The notes beneath the pieces are model-generated. The model did not search any database, was not told the DNA's origin, and was given only the letters and a program-made list of their open reading frames with translations. This document shows, in pieces, positions 28,721 to 33,639 of a DNA stretch of 64,000 nucleotides; the stretch's first letter is position 1, and each line of letters starts with the position of its first letter. Made by a program: the position numbers and the translations under genes. Source of the DNA: an uncultured Chromatiales bacterium (GTDB lineage: Bacteria > Pseudomonadota > Gammaproteobacteria > SZUA-140); the NCBI GenBank assembly GCA_964581365.1, contig CAZOOF010000004.1, positions 442 to 64,441 on the forward strand, in the 5' to 3' direction.

Positions 28721-29641
28721 TCACCCTCCCATCGCCCGATCCACCGTCGCGCGATCCAGGTGCGGCGCGAACATCTCGATGAAAGCGTACATGTAGCCAC
28801 GGAGCTGGGCCCCGCGGCGCAGGCCGAGGCGGGTGGTGCAGGGTTCGAACAGGTGACTGGCGTCGAGCATGCGCAGATTGCTGTCGCGCTCGGGATTGTA
28901 GGCCATGCTGGCCATCAGGCCGATGCCGATACCGATCTCGACATAGGTCTTGATGACATCGGAATCGATCGCGGAAAAAACGACGTTCGGGCGCAGACCC
29001 GCCCGCTCGAAGGCATCGTTGATCTTGACCCGTCCGGCAAAGGAAAAATCATAGGTAACGATGGGATATTGGGCGATCTTTTCCAGCGTGAGCGGCTGAT
29101 CGCGCAGGATGGGCAGCCCCGGCGGCGCGATGACGCAGTGGTTCCAGTCGTAGCACGACATCACCACCAGATCCTCGAACAGGTCGATTCCTTCAGTAGC
29201 GATGGCGATATCGGCAACCCCCGATGCGGCGAGCTGCGCGATCTGCATGGGATCGCCCTGGTGCAGATGCAGCCGGACATTGGGATAGCGGGCGGCAAAT
29301 GCCTTGATCACTGGAGGCAGGGCATAGCGGGCCTGGGTATGGGTAGTGGCGATCGACAGGCTGCCGCTCGCCTGGTCGGTGAATTCGAAGCCGACCTGCC
29401 GTATATGCTCCAGTTCGCGCAACACGCGTTCGGCCATGGCCAGAACAGCGCGCCCGGGCTGGGTGATACCGACCAGGCGCTTGCCGTTGCGCTCAAAGAT
29501 CTGGATGCCGAGCTCCTTCTCGAGCTGGCGGACCTGATTGCTGATGCCAGGCTGAGCCGTATTCAATGCCTGGGCGGCGGCCGATATGTTCAGACCACAA
29601 CGGGCGATCTCGCGAACATACCGTAGCTGCTGGAAATTCAT
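28721..29641 (-). CDS. cysB: LysR-family regulator, CysB-like
   Basis: The N-terminal HTH MNFQQLRYVREIARCGLNISAAAQALNTAQPGISNQVRQLEKELGIQIF aligns closely with E. coli CysB. Divergent from a sulfite reductase gene. Confidence 0.8.
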   Translation of the reverse strand: MNFQQLRYVREIARCGLNISAAAQALNTAQPGISNQVRQLEKELGIQIFERNGKRLVGITQPGRAVLAMAERVLRELEHIRQVGFEFTDQASGSLSIATTHTQARYALPPVIKAFAARYPNVRLHLHQGDPMQIAQLAASGVADIAIATEGIDLFEDLVVMSCYDWNHCVIAPPGLPILRDQPLTLEKIAQYPIVTYDFSFAGRVKINDAFERAGLRPNVVFSAIDSDVIKTYVEIGIGIGLMASMAYNPERDSNLRMLDASHLFEPCTTRLGLRRGAQLRGYMYAFIEMFAPHLDRATVDRAMGG

Positions 29642-29778
29642 ATCGCACCATATACATAAATCTTATTTGTATATAAGATATCATTATTTTTTTGAATATA
29701 GATATATTGATATCATCGAAATCCGCAGCGGCCGGTCAAGTACCGGCCGTACGCGTCTGCAATGCAGGAGAACATGCG
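29642..29778. promoter_or_regulatory. AT-rich (~70% AT) divergent cysB/sulfite-reductase control region. It holds two imperfect direct repeats TTG(T/A)ATATA(A)GATAT and a GC-rich leader hairpin CGGCCGGT-caagt-ACCGGCCG (29729..29749).
   Basis: A striking compositional island in a 66% GC genome; repeats and hairpin read directly from the sequence. CysB operators are known to be AT-rich. Confidence 0.5.
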
Positions 29779-31875
29779 ATGAGCGAAGTCCGGTCACTGG
29801 TCGATCACGAGGAACTCGAGCGCTTCGAGGAAAGCGTTAACTCGTTTCTGCGCAACGAAATCGATGCTGAGCGCTTTCAGTCGATCCGGCTGCAGCAGGG
29901 CATCTATGGCCAGCGCCAGGAAGGTGTGCACATGGTCCGCGTCAAGATTCCGGGCGGCTATCTCACGCCAGCGCAGCTCGAGACCATCGCCGAAGTGCTG
30001 GACCAGTACTCCGAGTCGGAGCACGCCCACATCACGACGCGGCAAGACATTCAGATGCACAACGTGCCGCTCGCGAAGGTCCCGGCGGCGCTCAAGACTC
30101 TTGCGCGCGCCGGCCTGACTACCCGCGAAGCCTGCAACAACACGGTGCGCAACGTCAGCTGCTGTCCGCTCGCGGGCGCCTGCCCCAGCGAAAGGGTCGA
30201 TATCCGCCTGCACCATGAGCACGTGATGCGCTACCTGCTGCGCCATCCGCTCACGCAGCACCTGCCACGCAAGTTCAAGATCAGCTTCTCGGCCTGCGAA
30301 TCGGATTGCGCCCAGGGCATGATTCATGACCTCGCGGTAATCGCCGTGAAAAAGGACGACCGCTATGGCTTCAGGCTGCTCGCCGGCGGCGGCCTCGGTC
30401 ACAAGCCGCGCAAGGCCATCCTCATCGAGGAGTTCATTACCGAAGAGGAACTGGTGCCCTGCGTAGAGGCAGTGATTTCGCTGCACAACCGCTACTCCGA
30501 TCGCAAGCGTCGCGCCAAGTCCCGCATCAAGTTCCTGGTCGAACGCTTCGGCGAGGAAGGGTTCGTGGAAAAGTATCGCGAGGAACTGGAGCGCACCCGC
30601 ACCGCGCTGCGCGGCCATGTTCCCCCGCGCGGCGAATGGCAGGACGGTACGCCATCGCCGGTGCATGCCAATCCTGGCGCACCCCGCAAGATCCTGACGC
30701 AGAAGCAGCCCGGTCTTCATGTCTTCCCGATCGGCGTTCCCATCGGCGACATGACCGCCGAGCAGATGCGTGGCATTGCCGCGCTGATGTATCGCGAACA
30801 GCTCAGCGATCTGCGCACCACCCAGGATCAGAATCTCATGTTCGTCGGCGTTCCGGAGGAGCGTATCGCCGCGGTGCGCGAGGGCCTGGCGGATCTCGGC
30901 CTCGGCGAACCGCAAGCCGGCGATGATGTGGTGTCCTGTCCCGGCACCTCCACCTGCCGTCTGGGCATCACCTCCTCGAAGATCATCGGCACGCGGATCA
31001 GCGGCGGCGCCATGGATCTGAGGATCCGCGCCAGCGGCTGTCACAACGGCTGCGCCCAGCCGGAAACCGGAGACATCGGTATCTACGGCGAGGGCAAGCG
31101 TCTGCACGGCAAGCTCGTGCCCCACTACCAGTTCTACATCGGCGGCGATGGCCGCCATGGCGGCGATATCGCCATCAAGGGGCCGTCCGTACCGGCCGCG
31201 CGCGTTCCGCTTGCCATTCAGCGTGTCCAGGCTGCCTATGCCGAGACCCGGAGCGACGGAGAAACCTTCTTTGCCTGGGCTCACCGGCAGGAAGCGGAGT
31301 ACTTCAACGGGCTGCTCGCCGAATTCAGCAACGTGGCTCCCGAAGAGCTGTCCGCGGTGCTCAACGACCACGGCCAGGAAGAAGCCTTCCGCGTATACCA
31401 GTTCGGAGGCGGCGAATGTGCCGGCGCCGCACAGGAAACCGTGGCGGCAAACTTCGCTGAGGCCGCCAATGAGCGCAACTATCGCAACGGCTTCCTGATG
31501 CAGCGCAAGTACGAGGAGTCCATCGAGTGCTCGCGCGCTATCGCCCGCCTGATCGGGCAATCCCTGCTCTTCCTGGCAGGACAGCCACCGGTAGAGAATC
31601 TGCGCGAGATCGGCGCCAAGCTCGCGGAGACCCTGAGCGGCAATCAGTCCCTCGGCGATCAGCTGATGAAACTGTCCGACGAGCTGGATCGTCTCGGCGA
31701 CGACTTCGATGAACCGGCCTATCGCGAGCTGATTTCGGAGCTCGACGCATGGACGGTCGCCGCCGGCGCCACCTGCCAGGACATCGACCGTCAGCTCGAC
31801 CTCAGCGCTTCGCTGCAAAGCATTAATGGCGGCGGCGCCACGGCTGAAAAAAAAAGAGCGGGAGCCGCGCTGTAG
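29779..31875 (+). CDS. Ferredoxin-type sulfite/nitrite reductase hemoprotein (Sir/CysI-like) with a ~170-aa C-terminal extension of unknown function
   Basis: Siroheme/4Fe-4S Cys cluster (SCPGTSTCRLG ... ASGCHNGCAQPE) and duplicated NiR/SiR ferredoxin-like halves. Start at MSEVRSL with AGGAG 9 nt upstream (the tracked ORF begins 29692). The C-terminus ends in ...TAEKKRAGAAL within an A9 tract. Confidence 0.8.
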   Translation: MSEVRSLVDHEELERFEESVNSFLRNEIDAERFQSIRLQQGIYGQRQEGVHMVRVKIPGGYLTPAQLETIAEVLDQYSESEHAHITTRQDIQMHNVPLAKVPAALKTLARAGLTTREACNNTVRNVSCCPLAGACPSERVDIRLHHEHVMRYLLRHPLTQHLPRKFKISFSACESDCAQGMIHDLAVIAVKKDDRYGFRLLAGGGLGHKPRKAILIEEFITEEELVPCVEAVISLHNRYSDRKRRAKSRIKFLVERFGEEGFVEKYREELERTRTALRGHVPPRGEWQDGTPSPVHANPGAPRKILTQKQPGLHVFPIGVPIGDMTAEQMRGIAALMYREQLSDLRTTQDQNLMFVGVPEERIAAVREGLADLGLGEPQAGDDVVSCPGTSTCRLGITSSKIIGTRISGGAMDLRIRASGCHNGCAQPETGDIGIYGEGKRLHGKLVPHYQFYIGGDGRHGGDIAIKGPSVPAARVPLAIQRVQAAYAETRSDGETFFAWAHRQEAEYFNGLLAEFSNVAPEELSAVLNDHGQEEAFRVYQFGGGECAGAAQETVAANFAEAANERNYRNGFLMQRKYEESIECSRAIARLIGQSLLFLAGQPPVENLREIGAKLAETLSGNQSLGDQLMKLSDELDRLGDDFDEPAYRELISELDAWTVAAGATCQDIDRQLDLSASLQSINGGGATAEKKRAGAAL

Positions 31876-32078
31876 ACCTGAGCACCTACGGCTGTCCGCT
31901 GCACTACATCAAGGCAAGGCATGAGTTGCGCGGCCGCACCGTCGGCGAGGTCGTCGATTTCGTGTTCCAGTCCGAGGATGCCGCGAAACAGGCGGCATCC
32001 AGCCTGGAAAAGGATGGCCATGAGCTGCTGACGCTGGACGGAGCCACGGCATCGATCCGACGCGGCGGAACCGCCTGA
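31848..32078 (+). CDS. TusA-like (sulfurtransferase fold) small ORF with no ATG/GTG/TTG start, in the -1 frame relative to the upstream reductase
   Basis: Stop-to-stop frame KKKSGSRAVDLSTYGCPLHYIKARHELRGRTVGEVVDFVFQSEDAAKQAASSLEKDGHELLTLDGATASIRRGGTA*; pattern G-CP-x-x...K...GE.V.F...D......GHELL typical of TusA/SirA-like proteins (CPLH instead of CPxP). Not in the ORF track because there is no canonical start. Confidence 0.4.
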   Translation, partial: KKKSGSRAVDLSTYGCPLHYIKARHELRGRTVGEVVDFVFQSEDAAKQAASSLEKDGHELLTLDGATASIRRGGTA

Positions 32079-32092
32079 GGCGTTCCGCCGCC
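32062..32092 (+). promoter_or_regulatory. Near-perfect hairpin GCGGCGGAACCGCC-TGA-GGCG(T)TCCGCCGCC. The stop codon of the TusA-like frame is the loop, and the stem ends 1 nt before the cupin ATG.
   Basis: Read directly; the arms are reverse complements apart from one bulged T. Confidence 0.5.
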
Positions 32093-32461
32093 ATGAACGA
32101 ACCGAAGCAGTCCAGGGAAGACTGCCGCCCCTTCATCACCCTCGATGGCTCACTGGTGCGTGAACTGATGCATCCCGGTGACCAGGGCAGGCAGAGCCTG
32201 GCTGAAGCCATCGTCCTCCCGGGAAACCGGACCCGGGCGCATCGCCACCATCTCAGTGAAGAGATCTACCATTTCCTCGCCGGAAGCGGGATCATGGAGC
32301 TCGGCGACCGGAGTTTCCGGATCACCGCTGGTGATACGGTGCGAATCCCCCCCGGAACACCCCATGCGCTCCTGAATGACGGGGACAATGAGTTGCGGCT
32401 CCTGTGCTGTTGTGCGCCGCCCTACTCGCATGAAGACACGGAACTGCTCGACCGGCGCTGA
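32093..32461 (+). CDS. Cupin domain protein (cupin_2)
   Basis: 122 aa; H-x-H...E...H metal-site pattern (HRHHLSEEIYHFLAGSG ... PHAL). Confidence 0.7.
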   Translation: MNEPKQSREDCRPFITLDGSLVRELMHPGDQGRQSLAEAIVLPGNRTRAHRHHLSEEIYHFLAGSGIMELGDRSFRITAGDTVRIPPGTPHALLNDGDNELRLLCCCAPPYSHEDTELLDRR

Positions 32462-32575: not shown

Positions 32576-32989
32576 ATGACAGACACGCAGCCCCCAATCG
32601 TCGTATCCAGCCTGGACCTGGATCGACTCGAACGAATCATGGACGCAGGCCAGTTCCGCAACATGCCCGGAATCGACGCGTTGAGGCATGAGTTGGATCG
32701 CGCAACGATCATGGAGCCCTCCGAGATGCCGGCAGGGGTCGTCACCATGAATTCGCGCGTGCGCTTCGTCGACGATTCAACGGGCTCGGAGTTCGAACTG
32801 ACTCTGGTCTATCCCGAAGCCAGCGGACAGGCCGGCACCGTGTCAGTTCTGGCACCGGTCGGCAGCGCCCTGCTTGGCCTGTCGGTTGGCCAGTCGATCT
32901 CCTGGCAGGTTCCCGGCGGGCGCAAACTGCAGCTGCGCATCCTCGATGTGGTCTATCAGCCTGAAGCCGAAGGCGAGCTGCATCGCTGA
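32576..32989 (+). CDS. rnk: Nucleoside diphosphate kinase regulator (GreA/GreB C-terminal domain family)
   Basis: 137 aa; Rnk-like; GreA/B C-terminal FKBP-like domain motifs. Confidence 0.75.
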   Translation: MTDTQPPIVVSSLDLDRLERIMDAGQFRNMPGIDALRHELDRATIMEPSEMPAGVVTMNSRVRFVDDSTGSEFELTLVYPEASGQAGTVSVLAPVGSALLGLSVGQSISWQVPGGRKLQLRILDVVYQPEAEGELHR

Positions 32990-33024
32990 GCGCGCACCTC
33001 TCACTCATCACCAAGGCACCACAC

Positions 33025-33639
33025 ATGCTCTCCGCTCTGGACGCACTCGAGAGGCTGCGCGAAGGCAATCGCCGCTTCGCCACTGGGGTGCGTAACGACA
33101 TCCCCATCCATCAGGGACGGCGACGGGAGCTGACCGCGGGACAGGAGCCTTTCGCGATCATTCTGGGGTGTTCGGATTCCCGTGTTCCGGCGGAGATCGT
33201 CTTCGACCAGGGACTCGGGGATCTGTTCGTGATCCGCGTCGCAGGAAACATCGTCGCGCCATCCCAGATCGGCAGCGTCGAATTCGCCGCGGCGCGCTAT
33301 GGGACTCGCCTAGTGGTCGTGCTGGGACACTCCAGTTGCGGCGCAGTCCAGGCCACCATCGATGAACTGCAACACCCCTCGGACCAGACCCGCAACCTGC
33401 GCTCCATCGTGGACCGTATTCGCCCCGCAGTAGAGGGTCTGCTGCATACCGACCTGGTGAATCAACCCGCCGCCCTGATGCGCAAGGCCGTGCGCACCAA
33501 CATCCGCGTCGCGGCCAGCCAGCTTCGCCACGGCTCCGAAGTTCTCGAGCGCCTGATCCAGGATGACGAGTTGCTGGTGGTCGGCGCCGAATACTCACTG
33601 GAGACAGGTCTCGTCGACTTCTTCGACGGCACTCCTTAA
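33025..33639 (+). CDS. Beta-class carbonic anhydrase
   Basis: CSDSR ... HSSCGA zinc-ligand motifs. Confidence 0.9.
   Translation: MLSALDALERLREGNRRFATGVRNDIPIHQGRRRELTAGQEPFAIILGCSDSRVPAEIVFDQGLGDLFVIRVAGNIVAPSQIGSVEFAAARYGTRLVVVLGHSSCGAVQATIDELQHPSDQTRNLRSIVDRIRPAVEGLLHTDLVNQPAALMRKAVRTNIRVAASQLRHGSEVLERLIQDDELLVVGAEYSLETGLVDFFDGTP

Follow-up and report, generated by a model that had tools for sequence, protein, structure and literature searches.

Conserved recoding in ordinary bacterial genes, outside mobile elements and phages, is known from a small set of cases (dnaX, prfB, chlD, mxiE, and copA). In Escherichia coli, copA owes its two products, a copper chaperone and a transporter, to a −1 frameshift, and dnaX relies on the in-phase Lys-Lys heptamer A_AAA_AAG together with a Shine-Dalgarno-like element upstream and a hairpin downstream. 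The dnaX gene of Thermus thermophilus contains a run of nine As (PMC1088944; described as nine Ts in PMC5009743), and ~50% of each product is made. Runs of nine A or T slip efficiently in vivo (PMC1088944; PMC5009743), and the RNA:DNA hybrid of RNA polymerase has a length of 9 to 10 bp (PMC5009743). Poly-A cassettes of Mg-chelatase genes with 7, 9, and 11 As gave shifts of 10%, 40%, and 63%, respectively (PMC3711429). In a survey of Gammaproteobacteria, frameshift products that gain a new domain were extremely rare, with five cases when fusions of neighboring genes were excluded (bioRxiv 10.1101/2025.10.02.679949). Here, we describe a further candidate, found in a 64,000-nt stretch of DNA from an uncultured Chromatiales bacterium (contig CAZOOF010000004.1; hereafter, the window): a gene for a protein resembling siroheme-type sulfite reductases (the sir-like gene), with a run of nine As (A9) shortly before its stop codon and a TusA-like sulfur carrier domain in the −1 frame behind it.

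The sir-like open reading frame (ORF) extends on the + strand from ATG 29779 to TAG 31873-31875 and encodes 698 aa. Its last codons (31840-31875) read ACG GCT GAA AAA AAA AGA GCG GGA GCC GCG CTG TAG. A9 lies at 31847-31855 (+ strand) near the 3′ end, and the 0-frame stop codon falls 20 nt past it, six codons after the run. A preliminary description of this DNA had singled out A9 as unusual in GC-rich coding DNA. Indeed, it is the only run of at least eight As or Ts on both strands of the whole window (0.04 A8 matches expected by dinucleotide shuffling; two matches in 0 of 100 shuffles), and the GC content around it is 0.62 to 0.67. The heptamer A_AAA_AAA (31848-31854, + strand), a possible −1 ribosomal shift site, has the position and the phase with the 0 frame that had been described (GA[A AAA AAA] AGA; codon phase taken from the sequence). 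The 0-frame product, the Sir-only form, ends in ...AEKKRAGAAL* and is identical to protein P0001. The tail RAGAAL plus TAG (31855-31875, + strand) is a by-product of coding in the −1 frame; it is not conserved as protein in orthologs, and the tails vary by lineage (RAGAAL, RANLSI, TLRASI, KAQSSI, NLRA, and TA). The −1 frame is closed by TGA 31845-31847 (in GCTGAA) and then stays open up to TGA 32076-32078. Its translation begins with KKKSGSRAVDLSTYGCPLHYIKARHEL and ends with RRGGTA, and the complete reading is KKKSGSRAVDLSTYGCPLHYIKARHELRGRTVGEVVDFVFQSEDAAKQAASSLEKDGHELLTLDGATASIRRGGTA. The segment behind the shift (31854-32078, + strand; AAG AGC GGG... to TGA) has 74 codons and encodes a linker plus the TusA-like domain (VDLSTYGCPLHYIKAR...). 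Codons 1 to 692 plus these 74 codons give a Sir-TusA protein of 766 aa; one extra A is enough to link Sir to an intact, constrained TusA frame. Whether an A is added to the mRNA or the ribosome shifts by −1, the junction of the product reads ...AEKKK-SGSRAVDL....

We consider it highly probable, from the comparison of loci given below, that some form of programmed recoding operates at the A-run and gives Sir and Sir-TusA from one gene. In our model, standard decoding of the sir-like gene would produce the 698-aa siroheme sulfite/nitrite reductase-like protein. In a fraction of expression events, slippage at A9 would lead into the −1 frame, where 74 more codons would be read to give the 766-aa protein, a reductase with a cysteine-bearing TusA-like sulfur carrier tethered to it through a linker that is flexible and rich in Lys. 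Since the run matches its RNA:DNA hybrid of 9 to 10 bp in length, RNA polymerase would add one untemplated A, and the resulting A10 mRNAs would encode the fusion in a single frame; a −1 slip of the ribosome on the in-phase A_AAA_AAA may contribute. That slippage of RNA polymerase is the main mechanism has, in our view, about an even chance. What selection would favor is that a single gene makes two isoforms in a set ratio. Where the run is in frame with TusA, as in sister lineages, the fusion would be the default product and a slip would truncate it just before the TusA domain.

Compared to the described systems, the locus resembles E. coli dnaX in the in-phase Lys-Lys heptamer, the −1 direction, and isoforms with and without C-terminal domains, but no conserved stimulator was found, the run is pure and longer than the heptamer, and the frameshift would extend the product instead of truncating it. 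As in copA, one gene would encode an enzyme or transporter and a form that differs by a small carrier or chaperone domain; the frameshift in copA truncates and thereby releases the carrier, whereas here it would attach the carrier domain. With T. thermophilus dnaX, the locus shares a 9-nt homopolymer toward the end of the coding sequence, two products of unequal length that differ in C-terminal domains, and, in the relatives with an in-frame run, nearby stop codons in both nonzero frames (PMC5009743; PMC1088944). Unlike in Thermus, the polarity in the window runs the other way (the default is the short form, and a slip would lead to the long one), another protein family is concerned, and slippage is what we infer. 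The Mg-chelatase genes chlD and bchD are likewise metabolic genes of GC-rich bacteria with a poly-A run (7 to 11) and a −1 shift; they are annotated as two ORFs or as truncated, have fused homologs elsewhere, give two subunits or isoforms per gene, and shift more efficiently as the run becomes longer (PMC3711429; PMC9227772). The enzyme family and the appended domain of our locus are different ones.

The 698-aa protein was assigned to the siroheme-type sulfite/nitrite reductase-like proteins by Pfam (NIR_SIR, 8e-46; NIR_SIR_ferr, 3e-34) and has a C-terminal helical extension. All NCBIfam equivalogs (CysI, Sir, and NirA) scored far below cut-off, the best being "NirA family" with 221 bits versus 523. 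The ligands of a [4Fe-4S]-siroheme center, which follow the motif Cys-x5-Cys ... Cys-x3-Cys, are present in the stretches ...SCPGTSTCRLG... and ...SGCHNGCAQ..., and these cysteines are invariant across a 47-sequence alignment. An AlphaFold2 model of the fused homolog P0023, based on this alignment (mean predicted local distance difference test [pLDDT] score of 81), shows the Sir core followed by a low-confidence loop (residues 532 to 551) with a highly conserved GGGECAGAAQ motif, a helical bundle (546 to 669), a disordered linker (residues 682 to 691 with pLDDT <50; KKK at 690 to 692), and a beta-alpha-beta-alpha-beta-beta domain (694 to 762) with a Cys directly before helix 1. In Foldseek searches, the core matched NirA of Mycobacterium tuberculosis (1zj8; E = 3e-29, TMt 0.74) as well as ferredoxin-dependent reductases for nitrite and sulfite from plants, and the last domain matched E. 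coli TusA (3lvj_C; TM 0.81, root mean square deviation 1.9 Å) and 1dcj (TM 0.78). A sequence search of the PDB with a profile of the TusA peptides gave no match at E ≤ 0.01; it was the fold comparison that linked the domain to TusA. The model would place A9 of the window in the disordered linker that leads from the helical extension to the TusA-like domain; a Lys tract (KKK) would be tolerated there, since the run lies inside a flexible tether. Plausibly, the tethered domain would take up sulfane sulfur at the siroheme enzyme or hand it over there. The best-conserved stretch of the family, FGGGECAGAAQETVAANFAEAANERNYRN, is encoded at 31380-31480 of the window (residues ~535 to 570), where the C-terminal extension starts. 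It corresponds to residues 532 to 551 of P0023 (pLDDT 33 to 42), includes an invariant Cys, was assigned to no known domain, and may bind a ligand or a partner.

The preliminary description had recognized a TusA-like pattern in the −1 frame, to be checked with the hidden Markov model of PF01206. The 76-aa peptide does match this Pfam family (E = 2e-5), but its 24.8 bits are under the gathering cut-off of 28.6; the window peptide is thus TusA-like but short of formal PF01206 membership. Of the orthologous −1-frame peptides, 14/18 match PF01206 at E ≤ 0.01 (best, 5e-10), and 13 positions, including G-C-P-L-H, are invariant in all 18. The canonical active-site motif of TusA is Cys-Pro-x-Pro at the start of helix 1; the corresponding motif here is GCPLH, with a His in place of the second Pro. 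An example of a peptide inside the TusA frame is VDLSTYGCPLHYIK. The frame is intact, with 72 to 87 aa, in 16/16 out-of-frame loci (loci with TusA in the −1 frame relative to Sir) that reach its stop codon. The ratio of nonsynonymous to synonymous substitution rates (dN/dS) in the TusA frame is 0.066 between the window and its closest relative, L001 (dS of 0.53), 0.09 to 0.12 among L021, L024, and L063, and 0.18 between L019 and L020, with a median of 0.34 over 79 pairs. These values indicate that the TusA frame is under purifying selection and, together with its intactness, point to its translation.

An independent start for TusA was sought in a scan of the loci for ATG, GTG, and TTG and could be ruled out. 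It had been stated that the −1 frame has no such codon anywhere. This is not correct to the letter, as a TTG at 31926 and a GTG further on are in frame in the window, but both are located 3′ of the Cys-Pro motif, and no start yields an intact domain. TTG 31926-31928 (+ strand), at which one gene caller starts a 50-aa ORF, is past the Cys-Pro motif, and a product initiated there would therefore lack the Cys motif. It is not a conserved start either: the Leu at this position is encoded by the synonymous TTG in the window and L001 alone, and by CTG, CTC, CTA, or CTT in other loci. In 13/17 loci, no ATG, GTG, or TTG was present from the preceding stop of the −1 frame up to the Cys-Pro motif, and in 10/17 this stop is located at the run itself. 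None of the internal candidate starts is conserved among the loci scanned.

To see how homologs are organized, the conceptual 766-aa fusion was searched against 5.8 billion proteins, and the C termini of the best 120 clusters were compared. Approximately 80 of the 120 are single proteins of 750 to 785 aa in which Sir is followed by a helical extension (~150 aa) and, at the C terminus, by a TusA domain, with PF01206 precomputed for nearly all of them; the more distant homologs (~765 aa; 760 to 785 aa) show 57 to 68% identity. The remaining 40 clusters have 690 to 703 aa, 63 to 100% identity to the window protein, and no TusA domain, and all of them terminate 2 to 9 residues past KK or KKK (e.g., ...AEKKRAGAAL, ...AEKKRANLSI, ...AEKKTLRASI, ...EDKKKAQSSI, ...DEKKNLRA, and ...AEKKTA). 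The nearest fused proteins have an in-frame KKK at the position of the run (...EKKKAEVIDL...). Fused Sir-TusA orthologs, for which the preliminary description had suggested to look, are thus abundant, and no ortholog with a canonical start for the small ORF was encountered. In a neighbor-joining tree of the Sir core, calculated without support values, out-of-frame and in-frame-KKK proteins all fall into one clade, and the outgroup clades are all fused and do not have the Lys run. Within the shared clade, in-frame-KKK subclades alternate with out-of-frame ones, of which there are at least three, and P0005, P0010, and P0017, nested among out-of-frame relatives, are secondary hard-wired fusions that have lost the run. 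This distribution suggests that the fused form is ancestral.

Three of the fused homologs deserve a separate remark. The hard-wired junction of P0010 (locus L002), GGA AAG AAA AAC GCC GAG GAC ATC GAT CTG (KKNAEDIDL), closely resembles what a −1 shift is predicted to give in L018, an out-of-frame relative (EKKNSERIDL), and it looks as if a slipped product had been fixed in the DNA, with the run afterwards interrupted by an AAG codon. P0007 (1,002 aa) loses its similarity to TusA after ...CPINFLKAKQALDKLATGAAVE and continues to residue 1002, and P0036 (752 aa) misses ~15 residues of the TusA domain; the damage in these two may reflect further frame changes or assembly problems.

At the DNA level, 86 loci were collected from species-representative genomes, metagenomes, and single-protein look-ups, and the frame was determined from the position of the I-D-x-Q-L-D-L motif at the end of the extension relative to the C-P-L-H-Y motif of TusA. 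Where a source is named, it is an uncultured gammaproteobacterium (Chromatiales, Chromatiaceae, Thiotrichaceae, or unclassified), with the exception of L025, a distant match (39% identity) labeled Nitrosomonas. In 20 distinct loci, TusA is in the −1 frame, and all 20 have a pure A-run in the linker: A8 in one (L079), A9 in 14 (the window [L027], L001, L007, L012, L018, L019, L020, L022, L023, L030, L049, L058, L082, and L085), and A10 in five (L021, L024, L048, L063, and L073). A +1 shift is required in none of the 20. Five further lineages have the run in frame (L003 to L006, xxT AAA AAA AAA GCx; L032, GAA AAA AAA AAG), which brings the total of loci with an A8 to A10 run to 25; the remaining fused loci have no long run. 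Across lineages, the run occupies all three codon phases (GAA AAA AAA Axx; GAT AAA AAA AAA Gxx; ATA AAA AAA AAG). A9 is found in both in-frame and out-of-frame relatives, and hence, it is the surrounding sequence rather than the number of As that sets the frame. The claim that a start-less −1 frame is appended to the reductase via the A-run is thus strongly supported by the fused homologs, these 20 loci, and purifying selection.

The run itself also appears to be under selection. L003 to L006 keep three AAA Lys codons in frame, although AAA is the minor Lys codon (19 to 24% in L004 to L006; 13% in the window gene) and dS among the in-frame lineages is 0.66 to >1.6. That in-frame AAA codons are kept against codon bias at saturated dS argues for selection on the nucleotide run rather than on the protein. 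In the out-of-frame loci, KK is followed in the 0 frame by R, S, T, N, or K, and the codons used for them all begin with A; the pure-A length thus seems to be kept beyond the need of either protein frame. Furthermore, the in-frame loci have a stop codon 1 to 6 codons past the run in both nonzero frames, so that any slip at an in-frame run would give a Sir-only protein. Taken together, the pattern fits selection for a slippery tract that gives two products in either configuration. With respect to the position of the stops, the Sir-only stop codon is nearly always the TGA within GAT CTG A(C/G)N, the codons for the conserved D-L-S/T with which TusA begins (I/V-D-L-S/T). Since this TGA is embedded in the D-L-S/T codons, the end of the truncated form would coincide exactly with the domain boundary in both configurations; in the window lineage, the stop comes one codon before that, as a TAG within GTA GAC.

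Which step of gene expression slips is a separate question. RNA polymerase is favored because the run has 8 to 10 As, and never 7, matching the 9- to 10-bp hybrid, because the As flanking the heptamer are conserved, because no flanking structure or stimulator is conserved, and because the in-frame loci have stops in both other frames, as has Thermus dnaX. As is typical of transcriptional slippage, a run of As about as long as an RNA:DNA hybrid (8 to 9 or more) is located inside the coding sequence, its conservation goes beyond protein sequence and codon usage, and one untemplated base gives a meaningful alternative product. Features typical of a dnaX-type ribosomal frameshift were found only in part: a heptamer of the type X_XXY_YYZ is in phase with the 0 frame, but a structure 5 to 9 nt downstream and a Shine-Dalgarno-like element upstream were not detected. 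Flanking RNA structure in 22 run-bearing loci had z values near 0 upstream and downstream, with none shared or unusually stable, and by inspection only, without a statistical scan, no consistent GGAGG-type motif at a fixed distance was seen in the 40-nt upstream sequences. An Rfam scan of 31600-32300 returned just two chance-level matches (E = 0.26 and 0.64). With regard to efficiency, the Mg-chelatase cassettes and Thermus dnaX make it plausible, by analogy, that a substantial share of fused product is formed at A9.

Several points weigh against this proposal. Slippage itself, as well as its level, its efficiency, and the purpose of the isoforms, is what we infer from the sequences. The in-phase heptamer is present in every out-of-frame locus, in L048, L073, and L082 as the classical A_AAA_AAG, and therefore, a purely ribosomal shift would give the same product. 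A8 suffices in L079 to L081, which weakens the argument from a length of ≥9. Rare AAA codons, if slowly decoded, could favor ribosomal slippage. The direction of the break, which was tried as a discriminator between the mechanisms, had to be dropped, since it is always −1 and both models predict that. Finally, the number of independent frame switches is only approximate, as it derives from a neighbor-joining tree without support values.

The best-surviving alternative is the same two-isoform recoding, but brought about mainly by the ribosome, with the tRNA-Lys in the P and A sites slipping by −1 on A_AAA_AAA (A_AAA_AAG in some relatives), as in E. coli dnaX, and the mRNA unaltered. We regard this as possible. 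In its favor, besides the ubiquitous heptamer and the uniformly −1 breaks, AAA makes up only 13% of the Lys codons of the window gene, which could slow decoding, and the Mg-chelatase poly-A sites that were tested could not be assigned to either mechanism (PMC3711429). Against it, a shift on a heptamer requires neither a pure-A run of 8 to 10, never as short as 7, nor the heptamer-flanking As that are held across changing amino acids, in-frame lineages retain a full A9 or A10, and neither a conserved downstream hairpin or pseudoknot nor an upstream Shine-Dalgarno-like element was detected. The dnaX-like ribosomal shift with a stimulator that the preliminary description had envisaged therefore lacks support in this specific form, and slippage of RNA polymerase at the A8 to A10 run is at least as likely. 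The small GCGG-GAG-CCGC hairpin that had been noted 3 nt past the heptamer (31858-31868, + strand) does exist but is neither significant nor conserved; the fold of the 45 nt downstream of the run (31856-31900) has z = −1.0, and no structure is shared among the 22 loci. It was rejected as a stimulator and is probably without a role.

If the ribosome were the slipping partner, the site might even be a putative sensor of the sulfur status instead of a fixed-ratio device, an idea to which we attach little probability. In E. coli, U34 of tRNA-Lys receives its thiolation through the TusA relay, and this modification inhibits frameshifting (PMC3296357). The rate of ribosomal shifting on AAA-AAA would then depend on the 2-thiolation of U34; low sulfide would lead to under-thiolated tRNA-Lys, more −1 shifting, and more reductase with its own TusA-like acceptor, and in the window lineage, the downstream cupin gene would be unmasked via the hairpin that holds the TusA stop codon (see below). 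A gene for a sulfide-producing enzyme would thus have a feedback loop built into its coding sequence. The idea presupposes slippage of the ribosome, which we rate as less likely than that of RNA polymerase. No tRNA gene was found in the 64-kb window, in which tRNA-Lys had been sought.

Another explanation concerns the purpose of the site and overlaps with both mechanisms: the out-of-frame state could be a tolerated frameshift mutation in an A-rich Lys linker, rescued by adventitious slippage, with the Sir-only protein as waste. Since the fused form is apparently ancestral and P0005, P0010, and P0017 have reverted to hard-wired fusions, the fusion shows itself as the functionally important product, and "savior indels" at poly(A) tracts are known to rescue broken frames (PMC5009743). 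However, the out-of-frame state persists through saturated synonymous divergence and in 40 protein clusters, and the in-frame lineages, which need no rescue, still keep a pure run against their codon bias and have quick stops in both nonzero frames behind it. We therefore consider mere tolerance unlikely, and selection for two isoforms by slippage of RNA polymerase or the ribosome the better explanation.

A change of the tract length in the DNA at replication, which would switch TusA on and off between cells or strains, is very unlikely. Tracts of 8 to 10 As are prone to slipped-strand mispairing (PMC1088944), and A9 and A10 do occur across lineages. Moreover, L084 (Logan SRR12908329), a 1-kb contig, has A8 where the near-identical L085 and L086 from sister runs have A9. 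However, with A8, the frame reached in L084 is unproductive, and a C5-to-C4 change and a 3-nt deletion are further indels on this contig; its A8 is probably an error, although it could reflect slippage if SRR12908329 is RNA derived. Whole subclades are uniformly out of frame, and a junction-spanning query of the 5.8 billion proteins revealed no in-frame variant of the window lineage. In independent samples, each lineage has one length: the junction of the window is identical in two independent assemblies (JGI 3300044603 and SRR35904823; L027/L028), and the same holds for the A8 lineage (L079 to L081, three runs), the P0018 lineage (L082/L083), and the P0004 lineage (L085/L086). It has to be considered that same-lineage contigs were retrieved by exact protein identity, a procedure by which length variants among them would be missed, and that consensus assemblies can hide minor subpopulations of tract length.

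Equally doubtful, if not more so, is that the TusA-like stretch is a decaying, unexpressed remnant or a separate small gene with an unconventional start. The 50-aa ORF from TTG 31926 in one annotation and the sub-threshold Pfam score of the window peptide could be taken as hints in this direction, but the frame is intact in 16/16 loci with a dN/dS well under 1, Cys and Pro plus 11 other positions are invariant, and the nonconserved TTG would remove the Cys motif, with 13/17 loci having no start upstream of it. Finally, a sequencing or assembly error that hides an ordinary in-frame fusion, as raised in the preliminary description (A9 versus A10), is practically negligible: homopolymers are error prone on some platforms and a single extra A restores the frame, but the same junctions recur in independent same-lineage assemblies, the identical −1 correction, conserved across species, is needed throughout the 20 distinct loci and the 40 protein clusters, which stem from many studies, and A9 occurs in in-frame and out-of-frame relatives, with the frame set by context.

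The TusA frame of the window ends in a second, larger hairpin (32062-32091, + strand; 13 bp, −27.9 kcal/mol, z = −2.4), the triloop of which is the UGA stop codon itself (32076-32078). It ends 1 nt short of the ATG (32093) of a gene for a cupin-domain protein (32093-32461, + strand; 122 aa; Pfam Cupin_2, 1e-15) and partly covers a GAGG located 12 nt upstream of this ATG. The hairpin had been taken as a sign that the TusA-like frame is translated. It is real, and in L001 it is kept with compensatory changes (z = −4.3), but it is absent from L049, L007, and L079; as it is confined to the window and L001, it was rejected as a general feature and provides no general evidence of translation. That it serves, in this lineage, to couple translation of the cupin gene is plausible. 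The cupin ATG follows the TusA-frame stop by 14 nt and the 0-frame stop by 217 nt, no promoter-like site was found from the sir stop to the cupin gene, and the cupin gene is downstream only in the subclade of the window. It is a reasonable hypothesis, for the window lineage only, that translation of cupin is coupled to ribosomes in the −1 frame, which is no evidence for recoding. A parallel to this possible coupling is mxiE of Shigella flexneri, in which transcriptional slippage at T9 fuses two overlapping ORFs; mxiE, however, is a regulator gene on a virulence plasmid, its T9 refers to the sense-strand description, and the cupin coupling is hypothetical and limited to one lineage.

Upstream of the sir-like gene, a LysR-family regulator is encoded divergently (28721-29641, − strand; Pfam HTH_1 and LysR_substrate). 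A LysR gene is present at this place in nearly all fetched loci with enough upstream sequence, fused or shifted, in most with a tblastn identity of 59 to 100%. The intergenic region between the two genes (29642-29778) is AT rich, with a GC content down to ~0.48, ATATA-type repeats, and a T7 run, and is probably a regulated promoter with a LysR-binding region, for which it is a candidate. An in-frame TTG at 29692 inside this region is unlikely to be the real start of the sir-like gene. Past the cupin gene, at 32576-33639, genes for a GreA/GreB-like protein of the Rnk type (137 aa) and a beta-carbonic anhydrase (204 aa) follow, and the same gene order is found in L027, L028, L079 to L081, L085, and L086. 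That a homolog of transcript cleavage factors is encoded beside a gene possibly dependent on slippage of RNA polymerase is curious but may be coincidence.

In the literature, no paper was found that connects frameshifting or transcriptional slippage to either sulfite reductase or TusA, and no description of a Sir-TusA fusion was found either. The words "sulfite" and "TusA" are absent from the accessible portion of the text and supplements of Antonov 2013 (PMC3711429) and from the Atkins 2016 review (PMC5009743) and the 2025 frameshift survey (bioRxiv 10.1101/2025.10.02.679949). The family of proteins composed of Sir, helical extension, and TusA as a whole seems to be undescribed. By analogy, the site would work like dnaX of the Thermus or E. 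coli type, the poly-A frameshift of chlD, or mxiE.

In sum, the sir-like locus would add to the described cases a metabolic enzyme that would acquire its sulfur carrier domain through slippage only. In current annotations, these genes are cut off at ~695 aa and lack TusA in at least 40 protein clusters, and therefore, the TusA domain is omitted from models of sulfur metabolism in uncultured sulfur-cycling Gammaproteobacteria. Hard-wired fusions, lineages with an in-frame run, and lineages with an out-of-frame run form a natural series in this family, by which the value of a fixed isoform ratio becomes testable.

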